Source: a bacterium
Lineage (GTDB): Bacteria > RBG-13-66-14 > B26-G2 > WVWN01
Direction of reading: 5' to 3'
Length of the DNA stretch: 37,278 nt
Assembly: GCA_036480675.1 (NCBI GenBank)
Contig: JAZGGY010000102.1
Span: 1-37,278, forward strand
Under the pieces are notes generated by a model. The model was not told the origin of the DNA and did no database searches. It saw only the letters and a list, made by a program, of their open reading frames with translations. Numbering within the stretch: position 1 is the stretch's first letter; each line of letters begins with the position of its first letter. The position numbers and the translations under genes were made by a program. Positions 28,978 through 34,373 of the stretch are shown here, piece by piece.

Positions 28978-29619
28978 TCAACTGGCTTTTCTAGCCGCCG
29001 CGAAGAATATGGGTAAAAAGTAACACCGCTCCCCTTTAGATATCGCCGCCCCGCGCGCCCGCGCCGCAACGCGTAAACTCTCGCCGGCCGCCGATGCCCC
29101 TACCAACCTCTCCAGAAGCTCGAACTCCTTTTCTTCCTCCTCGGCCCAACGGGACGTGGTCCACGCCGAATTCAATACGCCGAAGCGGAAGACGTCGAAG
29201 CCGGCGCTGCTCAACAGGGCCGGGAGTTTCCGGCCCGCGGCCGGGTCGCCGCCACGCCGCCGCACCGCCTCCACGACGTCGTCGCGGCTCGAGGCCGCCG
29301 GCGGATAGTCGATGGCGCCCTCGTAATCCGGTTCCGCCAGCGCGACGTACACGCCCCCGCTCTTCAAAACCCTCTCCGCTTCCCGCAGGAACGCCGCCGG
29401 TTCGGCAAGCCAAGTTATCACGAACGCCCCCACCGCGGCGTCGAAAACGCCGTCGCGGAAGGGCAACGCCGCGGCGTCGCCGGCGACGAAGGCCGCGCCG
29501 CTCCCCCGGGCGCGCGCCGCCGTCAACGCCTCGAGCCTCCTGTCAATCCCCACCGCCACTTTGGCCGCGCGCGCCGCCAGCTCCGCCGTCACGACGCCGC
29601 TACCGCAGCCCACCTCCAA
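28978..29619 (-). CDS. class I SAM-dependent methyltransferase (start unresolved; coding signal continues upstream to 29757)
   Basis: The track ORF starts at TTG 29617..29619, directly at motif I (L-EVGCGSG), followed by VAGDAAALPFRDGVFDAAVG and LKSGGVYV. The 46 codons upstream (29620..29757) are open in the same frame and look like the missing N-terminus, but contain no ATG/GTG/TTG. See findings. Confidence 0.8.
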   Translation of the reverse strand: MEVGCGSGVVTAELAARAAKVAVGIDRRLEALTAARARGSGAAFVAGDAAALPFRDGVFDAAVGAFVITWLAEPAAFLREAERVLKSGGVYVALAEPDYEGAIDYPPAASSRDDVVEAVRRRGGDPAAGRKLPALLSSAGFDVFRFGVLNSAWTTSRWAEEEEKEFELLERLVGASAAGESLRVAARARGAAISKGERCYFLPIFFAAARKAS

Positions 29620-29757
29620 TATCCGCCCGAACCGTCGGAAGCTGAACTGCCGGTAGAGCTCGCGCCGGTGCGCCTCGTACCACGCCGCCTGGCGGACTTC
29701 CTCTTCGGGCGTAAGGTACGGGCCGGCGTCGCCTGCTATCTCCCATCCCTCCTTGCG

Positions 29758-31128
29758 CTACGCCGCGTTGGACGCGGCGTCCGGGCAACAGAAAACTCTC
29801 TCGTACTTGACCGACAGCGGGCACCCGGCGCCGCATATTTCTAAATCCGGGCACTCCCGACATCGGGCGGGCGCGTACTCCCGGTCGCGTATCTCGCGAG
29901 CCAATTCGTTGTTGTAGATCGTGTCCCAGTCGTCGGCGAGTATATTCCCCATAGGTTGGTAAAACGACTGGCACGGTATGACGTCGCCGTTGGGCTCGAC
30001 GCACATGTTGTACTTGGCCGCGGTGCACTGTTTGACGCCCAGGTCCATCGTCAGCGGGTTGAAGCGGCAGTACTGCGTCGGCGTATACCACATAAAAGTC
30101 ATGTCGTTGGCGGCGCAGGCCGCGGTGAAGCGGCTGAGGATGGGCCCGAGCGCGCCCTCCGGAATGCCGACGTCAACGTCGCGCGCGCTGCCGGAGTTAA
30201 TAATGCCGTTGGCCGCCACGTGCTCGACGTCCAGCGTCGCCAAAAACGCCACCAACTCCTCCACGTCGTCGACGTTTTCGGTGGTGAGCGTCGTGTTGGT
30301 CAACAAGTATACCGGGCTTGCGACGGCGTTCTCGATGCCGGCGACGGTTTCGTTGAAGGCGCCGTCGGCGCCCACCATCTTGTCGTGGGTTTCGGGTACG
30401 GAGGAGTGAATGGTTATTTGGACGTGGTCGAGGCCCGCCGCGGACAGCGCGTCCATATATTCCGCGTCCTTCAACTTGCGGCCGTTGGTCAACAGGCCGG
30501 TGACAACGCCCAACTCCTCGGCGTATTCGACCAATTCGACCAGGTCCGGGTGCTGCGTCGGCTCGCCGCCGGTGAATACCACGTGCGGAATGCCGAGCCC
30601 CCAAACCTTGGCGATGACGCGCTTGAGGTCCTCGGTGCTGAGCGTCTCGCCCGCGCGCGCGGCCTCGTTGTAGCAGTGGGCGCAGGCGTTGTCGCACCCG
30701 TACGTGAGCGCGAGGTCCATCCGGTAGGGCACGTCGACGTCGATGGAAAAGGGGTCGACGCGCTCGGCGCCCAGGTACGATATGGGACACCGCTCGTCGC
30801 CGCGCGCCATCATTTCTATCGTCTCGCGCAAGCGGCGGAGGTCTTCCGCCAGCTCCTTTTTGCCCACGCGGTAGCGCTTGGCCATCGTCTTGACGATGCG
30901 GTCGTCGGGCCACTCCTCGATTACGTAGCGCGCCATCTCGGCGCCGGTCTGGTTGAGGTGCAGGATGCGAGCGGCATTTATCATCAATATGCCGTCGCCC
31001 CCCGGGTTCAGGCGGAGGTGGAGGCGAACATGGAGTTCCGCGTCGTCGCGCCGGAGGTGGTATATCCCCGCCTCGAGCGGGACCTGCTTCGCCAGGAACT
31101 TGTCGTATATCGTCTTTCCGATACCCAT
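29758..31128 (-). CDS. radical SAM/SPASM-domain peptide maturase with N-terminal PqqD-like (RRE) domain
   Basis: The ORF track gives 29758..31245. I place the start at ATG 31126..31128 (MGIGKTIYDKF...) because the extension is an Arg-rich out-of-frame reading of the upstream gene's Cys-Ala repeat. The rSAM site is LTYGCDNACAHCYN. The SPASM motif is Cx2Cx5Cx3C (CRECPDLEICGAGC), with upstream Cys residues (QCTAAKYNMCVEPNGDVIPC). The N-terminal ~100 aa are PqqD-like (ILHLNQTGAEMARYVIEEWPDDRIVKTMAKRYRVGKKELAEDLRRLRETI). Confidence 0.9.
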   Translation of the reverse strand: MGIGKTIYDKFLAKQVPLEAGIYHLRRDDAELHVRLHLRLNPGGDGILMINAARILHLNQTGAEMARYVIEEWPDDRIVKTMAKRYRVGKKELAEDLRRLRETIEMMARGDERCPISYLGAERVDPFSIDVDVPYRMDLALTYGCDNACAHCYNEAARAGETLSTEDLKRVIAKVWGLGIPHVVFTGGEPTQHPDLVELVEYAEELGVVTGLLTNGRKLKDAEYMDALSAAGLDHVQITIHSSVPETHDKMVGADGAFNETVAGIENAVASPVYLLTNTTLTTENVDDVEELVAFLATLDVEHVAANGIINSGSARDVDVGIPEGALGPILSRFTAACAANDMTFMWYTPTQYCRFNPLTMDLGVKQCTAAKYNMCVEPNGDVIPCQSFYQPMGNILADDWDTIYNNELAREIRDREYAPARCRECPDLEICGAGCPLSVKYERVFCCPDAASNAA

Positions 31129-31163
31129 ATATAATCTACGACGGGATTTGAGGCCGACCGCGC

Positions 31164-32777
31164 CTAACGGCCGCCGCCGGCGCAGGCGCAGGCGCACCCG
31201 GCGCAAGCGCATGCGCAAGCGCAGCTGCTGCCGCCGCCGCTCCAACCGCCGGACGAACGCGCAGGCGGCGGGTTAGTGGTCGCGGTAACTTTGCCGGTGA
31301 ACGATTCCACCTTCGACACCACGCCGTTCGCGATGCCCTCCACGCGCGTCACGACGGCGTTGGCGAAGCTGGCGCCGGGGAGCGTGGGCATATCGAGCGA
31401 AACGCCCTTGGGCCCGACCCCGGCCGCGGGGGCGACGCGTCCCCACCATACGGGCCGCGGTACGTCGTATCCCACGAAGACGGTGCGGGCGTGCCCCTCG
31501 AAGTCGTCGTCCAGCATCGTCCACTCCAGGCCGTTCGTAAACTCCTCGACCTTGACGTCGGGGGTACCGGCCTCCTCCACCAACCGCCAGGCGGTCTTCA
31601 CTATCTTGCGGTAGTATTCGACGGTCTCGCGGTGGGAGAAGCCCTTCATCTTCTTCTCCACGGCCTTGATCAGCGACACCAACATGTCCTGGAGCTTCTT
31701 CTCGCCCAGGGTCCCGTCTTTGTCGAGCGCGGCGACCAACTCTTTCTCGTACGGCCTTAGGCCGTTCTCTTTAAAAGGTAGCTTCTCGAGCTTCAGCGGC
31801 TCCTGGGAGACTATGGAAAGCGCGCCCTTCTTAATCAAGCCGAAGAGGATCATGGTCAGGATTACGTTCAACGGCCGTTCCATCAGGATCGCGGCTTCAG
31901 GGGCGGTAAGGCCGCGCTTAATCCCCACGCCCTCAACCTTGGCCTTGGGCGACAGGTACCTCATGCGCCGACGCCGTTTATTGATTATGCCAAAGACGGC
32001 GATAAGTACGAAAATAGTAATCGGTATCAAGCATCCGCAGAATTGCGCCGCAAAGCCCACGAGGCCTGCGAAGAAGTCGCCGATCCACCCGAACTGCGGC
32101 GGCGACCGCACCTCCGCCACCGCGTTCCGCGGGAACGATATGCCGAAGTAATACTGCTCCGACGGCGACGCTTGCTGCCAATCCCAGACGTAATAGACGC
32201 GGCCATCCCTAACGAACATCTGCGTCGGCTCGCCGCCCTCGTCCTCGTGCCAGCGCGTTTGCTCCCCCGTTACGCCCGGCGGGAAGACGAAGACCATCGT
32301 GAGGTGGGTCGTGCCGGTGGTGAAATCGGAGCCGAACCAGGTGGGGCTGAAGACGGCCGACGCGTACGTCTCGTCGGCCGAGTCCTCGAAGACCATATGG
32401 TAATTACGGCCGTTAACGTGGAGCGTAGCCGCGTCGCCGGATCCAATTTCGTAACCGGAGAGCGGTATCTCGACGCCGACGTCGATGTACTCCGAGGGCC
32501 TTATGGTATACAGCGGATGGCCGTCGACGTCGGCGGTAATGGAGTCGAGGTCGTAATCGTTCGACGGAAAGCCCACGTCGACGATATCTATGGGGTCGCC
32601 GGCGGGGGTATTGCGAAAGGTTATCTTGTAATCGACGTCGAACGAAGAATCCTGGTTGACGGTTACCGTCACTACCTCGCGCGGGACCTCAAAGTAGTAA
32701 TCCTGCGCCGCGACGGGCCACGGCGTTACCGCCGCCGCCAAATATAAAACTATTGTCGCGCCACGTTTAAGACCCAT
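31164..32777 (-). CDS. DUF2207-like membrane protein with C-terminal poly(Cys-Ala) tail
   Basis: 537-aa ORF with a signal peptide (LYLAAAVTPWPVAAQ). The ~220-aa N-terminal domain opens with a DUF2207-like pattern (YYFEVPREVVTVTVNQDSSFDVDYKITF). A long hydrophobic span (FFAGLVGFAAQFCGCLIPITIFVLIAVFGII) is followed by KRRRRMRY and a soluble C-terminal half. It ends ...PPPARSSGGWSGGGSSCACACACAGCACACAGGGR*. The family call is from memory of its architecture. Confidence 0.8.
   Translation of the reverse strand: MGLKRGATIVLYLAAAVTPWPVAAQDYYFEVPREVVTVTVNQDSSFDVDYKITFRNTPAGDPIDIVDVGFPSNDYDLDSITADVDGHPLYTIRPSEYIDVGVEIPLSGYEIGSGDAATLHVNGRNYHMVFEDSADETYASAVFSPTWFGSDFTTGTTHLTMVFVFPPGVTGEQTRWHEDEGGEPTQMFVRDGRVYYVWDWQQASPSEQYYFGISFPRNAVAEVRSPPQFGWIGDFFAGLVGFAAQFCGCLIPITIFVLIAVFGIINKRRRRMRYLSPKAKVEGVGIKRGLTAPEAAILMERPLNVILTMILFGLIKKGALSIVSQEPLKLEKLPFKENGLRPYEKELVAALDKDGTLGEKKLQDMLVSLIKAVEKKMKGFSHRETVEYYRKIVKTAWRLVEEAGTPDVKVEEFTNGLEWTMLDDDFEGHARTVFVGYDVPRPVWWGRVAPAAGVGPKGVSLDMPTLPGASFANAVVTRVEGIANGVVSKVESFTGKVTATTNPPPARSSGGWSGGGSSCACACACAGCACACAGGGR
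31179..31223 (-). repeat. coding hexanucleotide repeat (7 x NGCGCA on + strand) encoding (Cys-Ala)4-Gly-(Cys-Ala)3
   Basis: The + strand reads GGCGCA GGCGCA GGCGCA ccc GGCGCA AGCGCA TGCGCA AGCGCA. On the coding strand every Cys is TGC, while the Ala codons vary (GCT, GCA, GCT, GCC x4). Confidence 0.9.
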
Positions 32778-32806: not shown

Positions 32807-33211
32807 TTACCATTTCGGTTCTTCTTCGATTTCGTATGACGTCCCGCAATAAGGGCAGGTTACCACCACGGCCCCGGCCTTGACGTCGATATTGTCTTTC
32901 GCCAGCGTGGCCCCGCAGGATTGGCACTTCAACCGCTCGAGCGACAGATCGCCCGTTAAATCTATTTGCTGGACGATGGTCTGCGGTTTCTCGGCCCGGT
33001 ACTTCTTGTAGGAGCGGTACATCAGTACGCCGGCGCCGGCTATGAGTAACAGGCCGATGACGTTAAGGCATACGCCCACGCCCACCCGGCTGCCGCCCTG
33101 CTCGCCGGCCTCGGCGGCGGTGGAGGCCATAATCCACAGAACGCCGAAGAAGATAAGCACCAGCGCCAAAACTACCATCGGTACGCCGAATATGCAGCCG
33201 CTCAATTTCAT
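32807..33211 (-). CDS. membrane-anchored zinc-ribbon protein (function unknown)
   Basis: I prefer ATG 33209..33211; the track uses TTG at 33217. There are two hydrophobic helices (VPMVVLALVLIFFGVLWIMA; VCLNVIGLLLIAGAGVLMY). A C-terminal CxxC-N22-CxxC ribbon follows (LKCQSCGATLAKDNIDVKAGAVVVTCPYCGTSY). It lies 29 nt upstream of the DUF2207-like gene. Confidence 0.7.
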   Translation of the reverse strand: MKLSGCIFGVPMVVLALVLIFFGVLWIMASTAAEAGEQGGSRVGVGVCLNVIGLLLIAGAGVLMYRSYKKYRAEKPQTIVQQIDLTGDLSLERLKCQSCGATLAKDNIDVKAGAVVVTCPYCGTSYEIEEEPKW

Positions 33212-33257
33212 AGTCAAACGCCGCCGTATTTATGACCTAAAATGCACTTATTACGTA

Positions 33258-33286
33258 ATAATATAGTATCTAAATGTCGATTGCAA
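33258..33286 (-). promoter_or_regulatory. candidate promoter of the zinc-ribbon/DUF2207-like/rSAM operon (TTGCAA-17-TATTAT) with overlapping palindrome
   Basis: The reverse strand reads TTGCAA (33281..33286), a 17-nt spacer and TATTAT (33258..33263). The region is markedly AT-rich. A perfect 14-bp palindrome TTATTACGTAATAA (33248..33261) overlaps the -10 element. Confidence 0.4.
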
Positions 33287-33362: not shown

Positions 33363-34310
33363 TTACCTGTTTTGATAGCGGTCGATTATCGACCTGAAGA
33401 GGTCGACCGCGGCGGCGAGGGTGATATTACGCCTCTCAATGCGGACTTTGTTGCCCACGACGCCGATTCCGATGAATATCTCGGCTTCCTCTTCCGCCGC
33501 CGGTTCCTCCGCCGCAGGAAGCGCGAGTTCAGGTACCGCTTCAGCGGCCACGCCGACCGGGACCACCTCGGGCCGCGGCGGCATAGGCGGCGCTGCGGGC
33601 GGTACCTCGCGGAGTTCTTCCTCTATCGTCGCTTTGATCGCCTCGGCCTCTTCCTCCCTCAAAGTAGGCTCGCTGACAGCGGCCGGCTCGGCCGCGGCGA
33701 CTACTTCCTCCTCTAGAAGCGGTTTCACCAGTTCCTCGAGCGGGGCTTCGGCGCCGGGTCCAACCTCTATCTCGAGGCCGGTGGGAACTGCTTCGGCCGG
33801 AACCTCTTCCTCCACCGGCGGCGCTTCCGCCTCCACGGCGGGCAAGTCGGCAGCATCCCACGGTTGGGGCGCTATTACTTCGCCCACGCCCTCCAGGTCG
33901 AAGTCCGTCAATTCCAAACCGGCGAGCGCTTCTTCGGCCGGCTCCTCGACGGGCGGCGGCTCGGGTCCCGGGGGCTCGAGGAAGGCCGCGGCCTCGGCCC
34001 CAGACGCGAATTCGGGCGGCATCTCGGGCGGCGCCATAAACGGCTCCTGGACCGCCTCCGCCTTCTCCTCGTCCAAAGGAATAGCCGACGGCTCGGGCGG
34101 CGCGGGGAAAGAGCTCAAATCGAAATCGCTCTCCGGCGCCTCGATAGCTTCCGGCCCGGGGGCGAGCGGTTCGTCGACTTCGTCGAGCGAAGTCTCGAAC
34201 TTATCGAATTCCCCGCTGGCGATCCTCTCTTTGAGCCGCCGCGCGCGCTCCTCGTTCCGCCTCTTTATAGCCTCTATAGGATCTTCTATTTCCTCGGCCA
34301 TGGGACCTAC
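33363..34310 (-). CDS. acidic Glu/Pro/Ala-rich low-complexity protein (function unknown)
   Basis: I prefer ATG 34308..34310, because AAGGAG lies 8 nt upstream and the track's TTG start at 34319 sits just upstream of and overlaps that SD. The N-terminus is a charged helix (EDPIEAIKRRNEERARRLKERIASGEFDKF). About 230 aa of E/P/A-rich sequence follow. The C-terminus is a short ordered-looking segment (IFIGIGVVGNKVRIERRNITLAAAVDLFRSIIDRYQNR). The gene has its own promoter-like site and terminator. Confidence 0.7.
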   Translation of the reverse strand, partial: VGPMAEEIEDPIEAIKRRNEERARRLKERIASGEFDKFETSLDEVDEPLAPGPEAIEAPESDFDLSSFPAPPEPSAIPLDEEKAEAVQEPFMAPPEMPPEFASGAEAAAFLEPPGPEPPPVEEPAEEALAGLELTDFDLEGVGEVIAPQPWDAADLPAVEAEAPPVEEEVPAEAVPTGLEIEVGPGAEAPLEELVKPLLEEEVVAAAEPAAVSEPTLREEEAEAIKATIEEELREVPPAAPPMPPRPEVVPVGVAAEAVPELALPAAEEPAAEEEAEIFIGIGVVGNKVRIERRNITLAAAVDLFRSIIDRYQNR

Positions 34311-34343
34311 TCCTTTCAAGCCGTTTTATCCTAATTCAAATGC

Positions 34344-34373
34344 ATTCTAATAACAATACGTTGTCGTTGTCAA
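34344..34373 (-). promoter_or_regulatory. candidate sigma70-type promoter (TTGACA-18-TAGAAT)
   Basis: The reverse strand reads TTGACA (34368..34373), an 18-nt spacer and TAGAAT (34344..34349), about 35 nt upstream of the ATG at 34310. The same hexamer pair occurs upstream of the C25 peptidase gene. Confidence 0.5.

Follow-up and report, generated by a model that had tools for sequence, protein, structure and literature searches.

Thioether bonds on cysteine-rich cores are formed by radical S-adenosylmethionine (rSAM) enzymes such as SkfB, CteB, AlbA, PapB and QhpD. In the described systems closest to the locus considered here, the SCIFF/CteB pair and the sacti- and ranthipeptides (SkfA/SkfB, subtilosin/AlbA), an rSAM enzyme with a SPASM domain and a recognition element (RRE) for peptides that are made on ribosomes and modified after translation (RiPPs) is encoded beside a highly conserved Cys-rich C-terminal core, and SCIFF is widespread in anaerobes and looks like a housekeeping product rather than an antibiotic. 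We analyzed a 37,278-nt bacterial contig (JAZGGY010000102.1, assembly GCA_036480675.1; the whole stretch is called the window below), which encodes TailP, a protein of 537 amino acids (aa) with a strictly alternating Cys-Ala C-terminal tail, directly ahead of the gene of such an enzyme. Judged from its sequence, the cassette appears to function like a sacti- or ranthipeptide system, differing in the kind of substrate, the composition of the core and the partner genes, and it is most like the SCIFF/CteB pair. Whereas SCIFF is a 45-aa peptide, TailP is a membrane carrier of ~540 aa (500–770 aa across the loci examined) with a strict Cys-Ala core that would offer only Ala or Gly as acceptors, and the cassette, in which no protease, exporter or transporter is conserved, adds a zinc-ribbon membrane protein, a pseudo-rSAM paralog and a methyltransferase. 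A short precursor peptide made of a leader and a Cys-containing core, as in the sacti- and ranthipeptides, was found in none of the loci examined.

The ACGX-repeat peptides form a family in which, as here, an rSAM/SPASM enzyme (TIGR04340, rSAM_ACGX) is paired with a repetitive Ala/Cys/Gly core; unlike them, TailP has a CA repeat with single-residue spacers on a large membrane carrier, and its neighbouring enzyme scores 67.7 bits against that model, the cutoff being 400. The QhpC/QhpD system is alike in that an rSAM/SPASM enzyme puts Cys-derived thioethers into a protein that is kept in a functional complex. QhpC, the gamma subunit of quinohemoprotein amine dehydrogenase, is nevertheless small, soluble and periplasmic, carries Cys-to-Asp/Glu links, and shares neither sequence nor repeat with TailP, and QhpD is outside the top 25 NCBIfam matches of the enzyme in the window. 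Clustered CxC motifs at the C-terminus are also found in metallothionein-like and CopY tails, and the CxCxxxxCxC of CopY binds Cu(I)/Zn(II) (PMC12648655). TailP differs from these in the strictness of the alternation, with Ala or Val only, in its genetic coupling to an rSAM maturase and in the lack of any family match.

The preliminary description of the window had likened TailP to DUF2207-type proteins. With DUF2207 (PF09972/PF20990) it does share an extracytoplasmic N-domain, a transmembrane (TM) helix, a cytoplasmic region and a Gly-rich C-terminus, but it differs in the Cys-Ala core that follows the Gly-rich region, which to our knowledge DUF2207 proteins lack, and in that no relative scores significantly. 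The assignment could not be upheld, since TailP in the window matched no Pfam family at E ≤ 10 and, among 65 relatives, PF09972 was matched by none and PF20990 (DUF2207_C) by 13, all of them sub-threshold with a best E of 0.0044. The Ornatilinea ortholog is labelled DUF2207 by UniRef and hypothetical by RefSeq. NCBIfam and PADLOC models gave no match to TailP either, the family profile found only a chance-level match among PDB sequences (E 0.09), and a fold search returned only a generic beta-sandwich (M1-aminopeptidase N-domain, OST1/ribophorin) that was uninformative on the tail. By these comparisons the family appears to be unnamed in Pfam and NCBIfam, and the cassette to lie outside every curated family tested. 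The searched literature held no description of the motif or the cassette, which is absence of evidence only, as subscription journals were mostly outside its coverage.

A conserved tail peptide coupled to a radical SAM/SPASM gene

TailP is encoded on the minus strand at 31164–32777 and ends in CACACACAGCACACAGGGR before the stop codon. Read from the open reading frame (ORF), the C-terminus is laid out as ...TNPPPARSSGGWSGGGSS-CACACACA-G-CACACA-GGGR-TAG, in which the core, CACACACA-G-CACACA-GGGR (residues 519–537), occupies 31167–31223 and the TAG stop codon 31164–31166 of the same strand. The alternation of seven Cys with Ala at this terminus had been described correctly before, although the range then given (31167–31229) covers, besides the core and GGGR, two preceding Ser codons. 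The codons reported at that time were confirmed from the ORF, all seven Cys codons being TGC and the Ala codons reading, in order, GCT, GCA, GCT and GCC and, after GGG for Gly, three times GCC; the plus strand likewise shows seven NGCGCA hexamers with a single CCC interruption. Tandem Repeats Finder placed a period-6 array at 31175–31224, and TGCGCNTGCGCNTGCGC, a three-unit TGCGCN pattern (≤1 mismatch), had three matches in the window (63% G+C), all within the tail, where shuffles predict 0.06. The only cysteines of TailP outside the tail are C247 and C249, which form a CxC motif (FCGCL, 32030–32039) within the predicted TM helix.

A degenerate DNA pattern encoding CACAGCACACAGGG, with the terminal R and the stop codon left outside it, was scanned over a collection of species-representative genomes and yielded at least 120 loci with at least 122 tails; these counts are samples, and the 8-kb blocks retrieved are not centred on the match. 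All 122 tails listed read (CA)3-5-G-(CA)3-GGGR-stop, and the terminal R and the stop were invariant although absent from the search pattern. The first block had four CA units in 95 of these tails, three in 15 and five in 12, and the second had three in every canonical-clade tail. They are encoded by 122 distinct DNA sequences, saturated at synonymous sites, with TGC (496) and TGT (355) for Cys, all four Ala, all four Gly and all six Arg codons, and all three stops. One peptide from 122 different DNAs excludes slippage noise, an assembly artefact and a function at the DNA or RNA level, in agreement with the earlier suggestion that selection acts on the peptide and that recent slippage did not produce it.

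Protein searches gave the same picture. The (CA)3-5-G-(CA)3-GGGR terminus was present in 120/120 best homologs, at identities down to 42%, and in a 65-member alignment the tail was the most conserved 19-mer of the family, with a mean column identity of 0.997 (next segment, 0.894). The tail-protein homologs number at least 1934 at the 90% clustering level, and phmmer against the full library, with the tail removed from the query, returned 840 clusters at 50% identity (E ≤ 1e-3). Among the top 150 representatives (50% clustering, tail-less query), 124 had C-terminal Cys-x repeats, down to 31% identity, and the remainder were fragments, frameshifted calls, one short SCACAGGGR tail and one likely chimera. 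A Cys-Ala tail, which the preliminary description took for an unusual version of a Gly-tailed family, is thus the norm here. The family is defined by this tail, a selected peptide under extreme purifying selection at the peptide level, and the very strong conservation of the tail implies an important physiological role.

The number of Cys per tail differs by lineage (6, 7, 8 or 10), with the alternation of Cys and a small residue being kept. A divergent clade (28–31% identity; loci L147, L181, L183, L184 and L196, proteins P0377, P0395, P0401, P0403 and P0416) has three blocks with ten Cys, for example CVCACA-N/H-CACACACV-S-CACACA-GGGAR or ...CACACASGGAG, in which Val may stand for Ala and S, N or H for the spacer Gly, and some of which have lost the terminal Arg. 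The shared theme, as read from these sequences, appears to be Cys alternating with Ala or Val in blocks that are separated by a single spacer (G, S, N or H). Repeat units are gained or lost without a frameshift, as had been proposed earlier, given that block 1 comprises 3, 4 or 5 CA units in 6-nt steps; such changes are rare and lineage-specific, and the locus is therefore not hypervariable. A contingency or phase-variation locus was considered and rejected, as the repeat number is stable within clades and canonical block 2 never varies, and a DNA- or RNA-level role of the repeat was rejected on the ground that the nucleotide sequence is not conserved.

Rare single changes of the tail were also seen, namely GGSR (L141, L195) and an S spacer (L172). 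Two Anaerolineae loci (L074 and L087) have two tail-bearing genes each within one 8-kb block, which indicates that the carrier can be duplicated within a genome, and a metagenome-assembled genome (MAG) of Planctomycetota has two tail-protein copies on different contigs (L021 and L058). A full-length homolog without the tail was sought as a negative control and none was obtained, the sole candidate being P0407. Its contig (L201) is 1.8 kb long and ends, in a different frame, with ...EEHTSELQSPYDLVCR, so that a chimera or the junction of an insertion element seems a better description than a true variant without the tail. The tail pattern had no match in viral contigs.

Across phyla, and whichever of the two is searched from, the tail is genetically coupled to an enzyme that has the architecture of leader-dependent peptide maturases. 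Among the 120 loci listed, 6 were not assessable for the downstream neighbour, and an rSAM/SPASM ortholog was directly downstream on the same strand in 107 of the other 114, at a median distance of ~27 nt. In the reverse test, 80 metagenome loci were retrieved via the enzyme, 72 of which were assessable: a canonical tail ended ≤400 nt upstream of the enzyme in 48, an adjacent variant tail was found in 8, and a canonical tail stood 0.4–1.6 kb upstream in 6, giving a Cys-alternating tail upstream of the enzyme in 62 of the 72. The link between TailP and the SPASM enzyme is thus conserved both ways, and since motif and rSAM neighbour are both conserved, it is not refuted by the thought that the motif might be widespread regardless of its neighbours. 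The cassette has the order ZR, TailP, rSAM/SPASM, pseudo-rSAM paralog (optional, mostly in Chloroflexi) and class I methyltransferase. No separate small Cys-rich ORF is present in it; the gap between the tail and the rSAM gene is 36 nt, and the rSAM and methyltransferase genes abut.

The maturase and its membrane carrier

The gene beginning 36 nt past the TailP stop (29758–31128, minus strand) encodes an RRE-rSAM-SPASM maturase of 456 aa, as indicated by Pfam, invariant Cys and an AlphaFold 2 (AF2) model; the preliminary description had already recognized an rSAM/SPASM enzyme here. In Pfam, the enzyme matched Radical_SAM (6.9e-27), SPASM (3.7e-10) and PqqD (1.6e-3). An RRE/PqqD-like domain spans approximately residues 20–110 (30799–31071), the CX3CX2C motif comprises C145/C149/C152 (30673–30696), and the SPASM Cys extend from C354 to C436 (29821–30069), all on the minus strand. 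C145, C149 and C152 are invariant in the enzyme alignments A2 and A3, and seven SPASM-region Cys (C354, C368, C386, C423, C426, C432 and C436), with a CX2CX5CX3C motif, are invariant in A2. PqqD was matched in 15/20 maturase orthologs, with a best value of 7e-7, and many of 120 maturase homologs had a precomputed PF05402 match. In the AF2 model, with a predicted local distance difference test (pLDDT) of 83 and a predicted template modelling score of 0.85, residues 21–109 form beta strands and three helices, and the best near-full-length structural matches were SkfB, SuiB and CteB, all of them RiPP maturases of the RRE-rSAM-SPASM/twitch type, with PqqE and anSME ranking behind. The architecture is that of an RRE-dependent rSAM/SPASM RiPP maturase, as CX3CX2C, SPASM and RRE were all found.

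The enzyme nonetheless belonged to no curated family tested. NCBIfam gave no equivalog at cutoff for the maturase in the window, the best models being TIGR04053, PqqE, NirJ2 and AhbD at ~115 bits; the curated sacti-type models were missed (StsB, 91 bits with a cutoff of 625; SkfB, 78 with 300; AlbA, 63 with 850), and the cutoff of the SCIFF/CteB maturase model in NCBIfam was not reached. The PADLOC models of anti-phage defence systems gave no specific match and showed generic likeness only, of the maturase to pVip and of the methyltransferase to a generic model, and none for TailP and ZR.

Across the tail repeat, an alternative frame (31128–31245, minus strand) is stop-free and reads RLRLRMRLRR..., so that ORF callers push the N-terminus of the rSAM enzyme into the tail of the upstream gene. 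Over-extended calls of this kind are seen as a 495-aa ORF in the window and as database entries of 486–489 aa (P0151, P0153), compared with 456 aa; these over-long rSAM N-termini are an annotation artefact.

TailP was described from its ORF, hydropathy and an AF2 model with a mean pLDDT of 85. The model comprises an N-terminal signal or anchor helix, a confident beta-sandwich (residues 29–216) placed outside the cytoplasm, a long TM helix (230–271) followed by KRRRRMRY, a helical/winged-helix region (282–500) placed in the cytoplasm, and a disordered C-terminus (512–537). The pLDDT of the tail is <50, and the tail is accordingly predicted to be disordered and flexible. Ahead of it, low pLDDT and homolog tails mark a Gly/Ser-rich flexible linker, ARSSGGWSGGGSS (residues 506–518; 31224–31262, minus strand), which varies in length and sequence among homologs. 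The linker is preceded by a leader-like motif, F-T-G-x-V-T-x-x-T-N-P-P-P (residues 493–505; 31263–31301, minus strand), with F493, T501, N502 and P503 invariant and ≥90% conservation at T494, T498 and P505 (alignment A1). This motif, which is the sixth most conserved 19-mer and stands ~25 residues ahead of the core, could be a docking site for the RRE of the maturase.

Proposed role of the tail and rival explanations

Given the conserved tail and its conserved neighbour, we propose with moderate confidence that the tail is a protein-tethered core peptide for the neighbouring maturase, encoded with it in a conserved operon. TailP would be inserted into the membrane with the beta-sandwich outside and the C-terminal half in the cytoplasm, as suggested by the signal-like N-terminus, the single strong TM helix and the positive-inside KRRRR, and the Gly/Ser linker would present the disordered tail to the cytoplasmic maturase. 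The N-terminal RRE of the enzyme might then dock onto the FTGxVTxxTNPPP segment, and the rSAM core would cleave SAM to a 5′-deoxyadenosyl radical that could abstract a hydrogen atom within the repeat. The Cys thiols might be joined processively to neighbouring Ala carbons in thioethers of the sactionine or ranthionine type, the methyltransferase would probably modify the tail further, and the pseudo-rSAM may serve to present the substrate. Since the conserved cassette is without protease or exporter, the product would remain attached to the membrane protein.

We infer from sequence that the tail is a direct substrate of the rSAM/SPASM enzyme. By analogy with described maturases, a Cys-to-carbon thioether, with Ala, Val or Gly as the acceptor, would be the most likely chemistry, and the variation of the Cys count from 6 to 10 by lineage is easier to reconcile with one reaction repeated unit by unit than with a metal site whose stoichiometry is fixed. 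We would only tentatively go further and suggest that the RRE-rSAM-SPASM enzyme, aided by the pseudo-rSAM as a catalytically dead paralog and by the methyltransferase, performs an undescribed protein-tethered modification, turning the alternating Cys/Ala strand on the cytoplasmic side of the membrane either into a thioether ladder or into a scaffold for a new metal-sulfur cofactor, with a housekeeping role in anaerobes of at least eight bacterial phyla and in Asgard-labelled archaea.

If the tail is a substrate, the rSAM/SPASM chemistry of RiPPs would no longer be confined to small secreted peptides but would also take place at the end of a large integral membrane protein, on the simplest repetitive substrate yet seen (Cys, Ala and Gly only), which would be useful for studying the choice of acceptor carbon and processivity. 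It would also define a new family and operon, now annotated as "hypothetical protein" plus "radical SAM protein", and the proposal is directly testable, as Ornatilinea apprima P3M-1 and Leptolinea sp. HRD-7, both of them carriers, are in culture and heterologous co-expression is easy.

Several points weigh against a tail acting as tethered substrate. The enzymes of sacti- and ranthipeptide systems are known to act on small peptides and not on membrane proteins of 540 aa, and we know of no precedent for thioethers between adjacent or alternating Cys and Ala. Gene adjacency alone is no proof of an enzyme-substrate pair, and 7 of the 114 assessable TailP loci are without an adjacent rSAM gene, one of these being a second TailP paralog in a genome that also holds a complete cassette, while 10 of the 72 rSAM loci of the reverse test show no TailP in the available sequence. 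The leader-like motif is degenerate in the Asgard-labelled and three-block clades, in which the core is retained. The PqqD score of the maturase in the window, 19.2 bits, is below the gathering score of 23.4, and the placement of the tail in the cytoplasm, where the enzyme would meet it, follows the positive-inside rule in what is a predicted topology. Finally, a metal- or cluster-binding structure would also be in keeping with the strict invariance of the tail, in which even Gly and the terminal Arg do not vary.

In an extended chain, the thiols of CxCxCxC would lie on one face, and an unmodified tail could thereby bind a metal or an Fe-S cluster, with the rSAM enzyme making no crosslink. We consider this unlikely though far from negligible, and the same holds for the roles that such a tail might have as a cytoplasmic sensor, store, chaperone, donor of clusters or sulfur, or metallocluster scaffold for the rSAM enzyme and the methyltransferase. 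A tail with seven to ten Cys spaced as CxC would suit metal binding, the invariance of every residue would be expected of a defined fold around a metal, a partner protein bears a zinc ribbon, the methyltransferase is weakly similar to the methyltransferase domains of arsenite methyltransferases, and the C-terminal CxC motifs of CopY offer a Cu(I)/Zn(II)-binding parallel (PMC12648655). Nevertheless, Cys numbers of 6, 7, 8 and 10 across lineages are awkward for a fixed cluster, and the RRE-rSAM-SPASM architecture is that of a peptide-modifying enzyme, whereas receipt of a cluster needs no RRE. The non-Cys positions, moreover, are Ala or Val only, in contrast to the mix of Lys, Ser and Gly in metallothioneins, and a Pfam metallothionein match is absent.

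The enzyme might also modify the tail by other rSAM chemistry, such as alternate-residue epimerisation (as by PoyD, YydG or EpeE) into a D/L-alternating strand, Cys oxidation as by anSME to formylglycine or dehydro-residues, or C–C crosslinks, combined with S-methylation or C-terminal O-methylation by the methyltransferase. This appears improbable to us. The strict period of two suits epimerisation of alternate residues, the structural matches include anSME, in mid-rank, and the epimerase EpeE, and the methyltransferase is a conserved member of the cassette. The best RRE-aligned matches, however, are SkfB and CteB, which form thioethers, and SuiB, which forms C–C bonds, and these outrank anSME and EpeE; the anSME motif C/S-x-P/A-x-R is missing from the tail (...CACACAGGGR), and precedent on Cys-rich cores is overwhelmingly for thioethers.

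It is very unlikely that the tail serves at the C-terminus as a signal for sorting, anchoring or lipidation (GlyGly-CTERM, PEP-CTERM or S-acylation-like) to which the rSAM enzyme is functionally unrelated. A Gly-rich stretch followed by 15 hydrophobic residues and GGGR loosely resembles C-terminal sorting tags, but sorting tags vary in sequence whereas the tail is invariant, the cassette conserves no sortase-like, rhombosortase or acyltransferase gene, AF2 gives the tail no helix, the three-block clade (...SGGAG) has lost the basic residue at the end, and the association with the rSAM gene holds both ways. Slippage of the hexanucleotide, whether neutral or recent, or an artefact of assembling GC-rich sequence, as the preliminary description had allowed for, would account for a period-6 tandem array in a 63% G+C window, but is refuted by the 122 different DNAs from many phyla, independent assemblies and isolate genomes.

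Accessory genes and distribution

The first gene of the cassette encodes ZR, a small membrane protein of 136 aa (ORF at 32807–33217, minus strand). Its N-terminal part has two hydrophobic helices and its C-terminal part a CxxC...CxxC zinc ribbon, and its matches to zinc-ribbon models are sub-threshold. Of 87 assessable loci, 80 had a ZR homolog directly upstream of TailP, and weak evidence points to a promoter-like site ahead of ZR at 33286–33258 on the minus strand.

The last gene encodes a class I SAM-dependent methyltransferase (28978–29739, minus strand; Methyltransf_11, 2.7e-21), a homolog of which was downstream on the same strand in 31 of the 43 loci with enough sequence. In NCBIfam it comes closest to the DVU_1556 family, with 61 bits where the cutoff is 155. 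From the first canonical start (TTG at 29619) the ORF runs over 28978–29619, and a conserved N-terminus of ~40 residues (GPYLTPEEEVRQAAWYEAHRRELYRQ..., also in L059 and L063) precedes that start, up to ~29739. The gene is in the same frame as the rSAM gene, and no in-frame ATG, GTG or TTG occurs after the rSAM stop (TAG, 29758–29760) and ahead of that TTG. A strong Shine-Dalgarno sequence, AAGGAGG (29748–29754), is followed 8 nt on by ATA (29737–29739). A non-canonical start, stop-codon read-through or a sequencing error are possible explanations of this start anomaly.

The pseudo-rSAM paralog is without CX3CX2C and the SPASM Cys but keeps an RRE-like N-terminus. It was present in 54 of 73 assessable loci, as in Ornatilinea apprima (L044, 2118–3278, minus strand), and most Chloroflexi cassettes have it between the rSAM and methyltransferase genes, whereas in a few Chloroflexi loci it stands immediately downstream of TailP, in place of the rSAM gene. 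The window lacks it, as do the Zixibacteria, Coatesbacteria, Acidobacteriota and Asgard-labelled loci.

Most of the loci listed are from the Chloroflexota class Anaerolineae, organisms that dominate anaerobic digesters and sediments, and here the carriers include the isolates Ornatilinea apprima P3M-1 and Leptolinea sp. HRD-7. The operon, common in Anaerolineae, also occurs in Zixibacteria, Acidobacteriota/Aminicenantes, Coatesbacteria, Edwardsbacteria, Fermentibacteria, Planctomycetota and Clostridia, with Zixibacteria being the closest relatives of the window among the loci listed (73% identity for TailP and 87% for the rSAM enzyme). Five MAGs labelled Asgard (Hod-, Heimdall- and Promethearchaeota; L046, L048, L066, L083 and L084) have TailP, rSAM and methyltransferase genes with a canonical tail and no detectable ZR; the label is that of the record titles, and flanking genes did not settle an archaeal origin. 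Among the loci listed, the system is almost confined to anaerobe-rich lineages, which agrees with an Fe-S enzyme that is sensitive to oxygen.

The window also encodes, just upstream of the cassette, a Glu/Pro/Ala-rich protein of 318 aa with no family match (33363–34319, minus strand). A homolog was seen only in the closest relative (L059, 65% identity), which puts this protein outside the conserved cassette, and a near-consensus promoter-like site stands ahead of its gene at 34373–34344.

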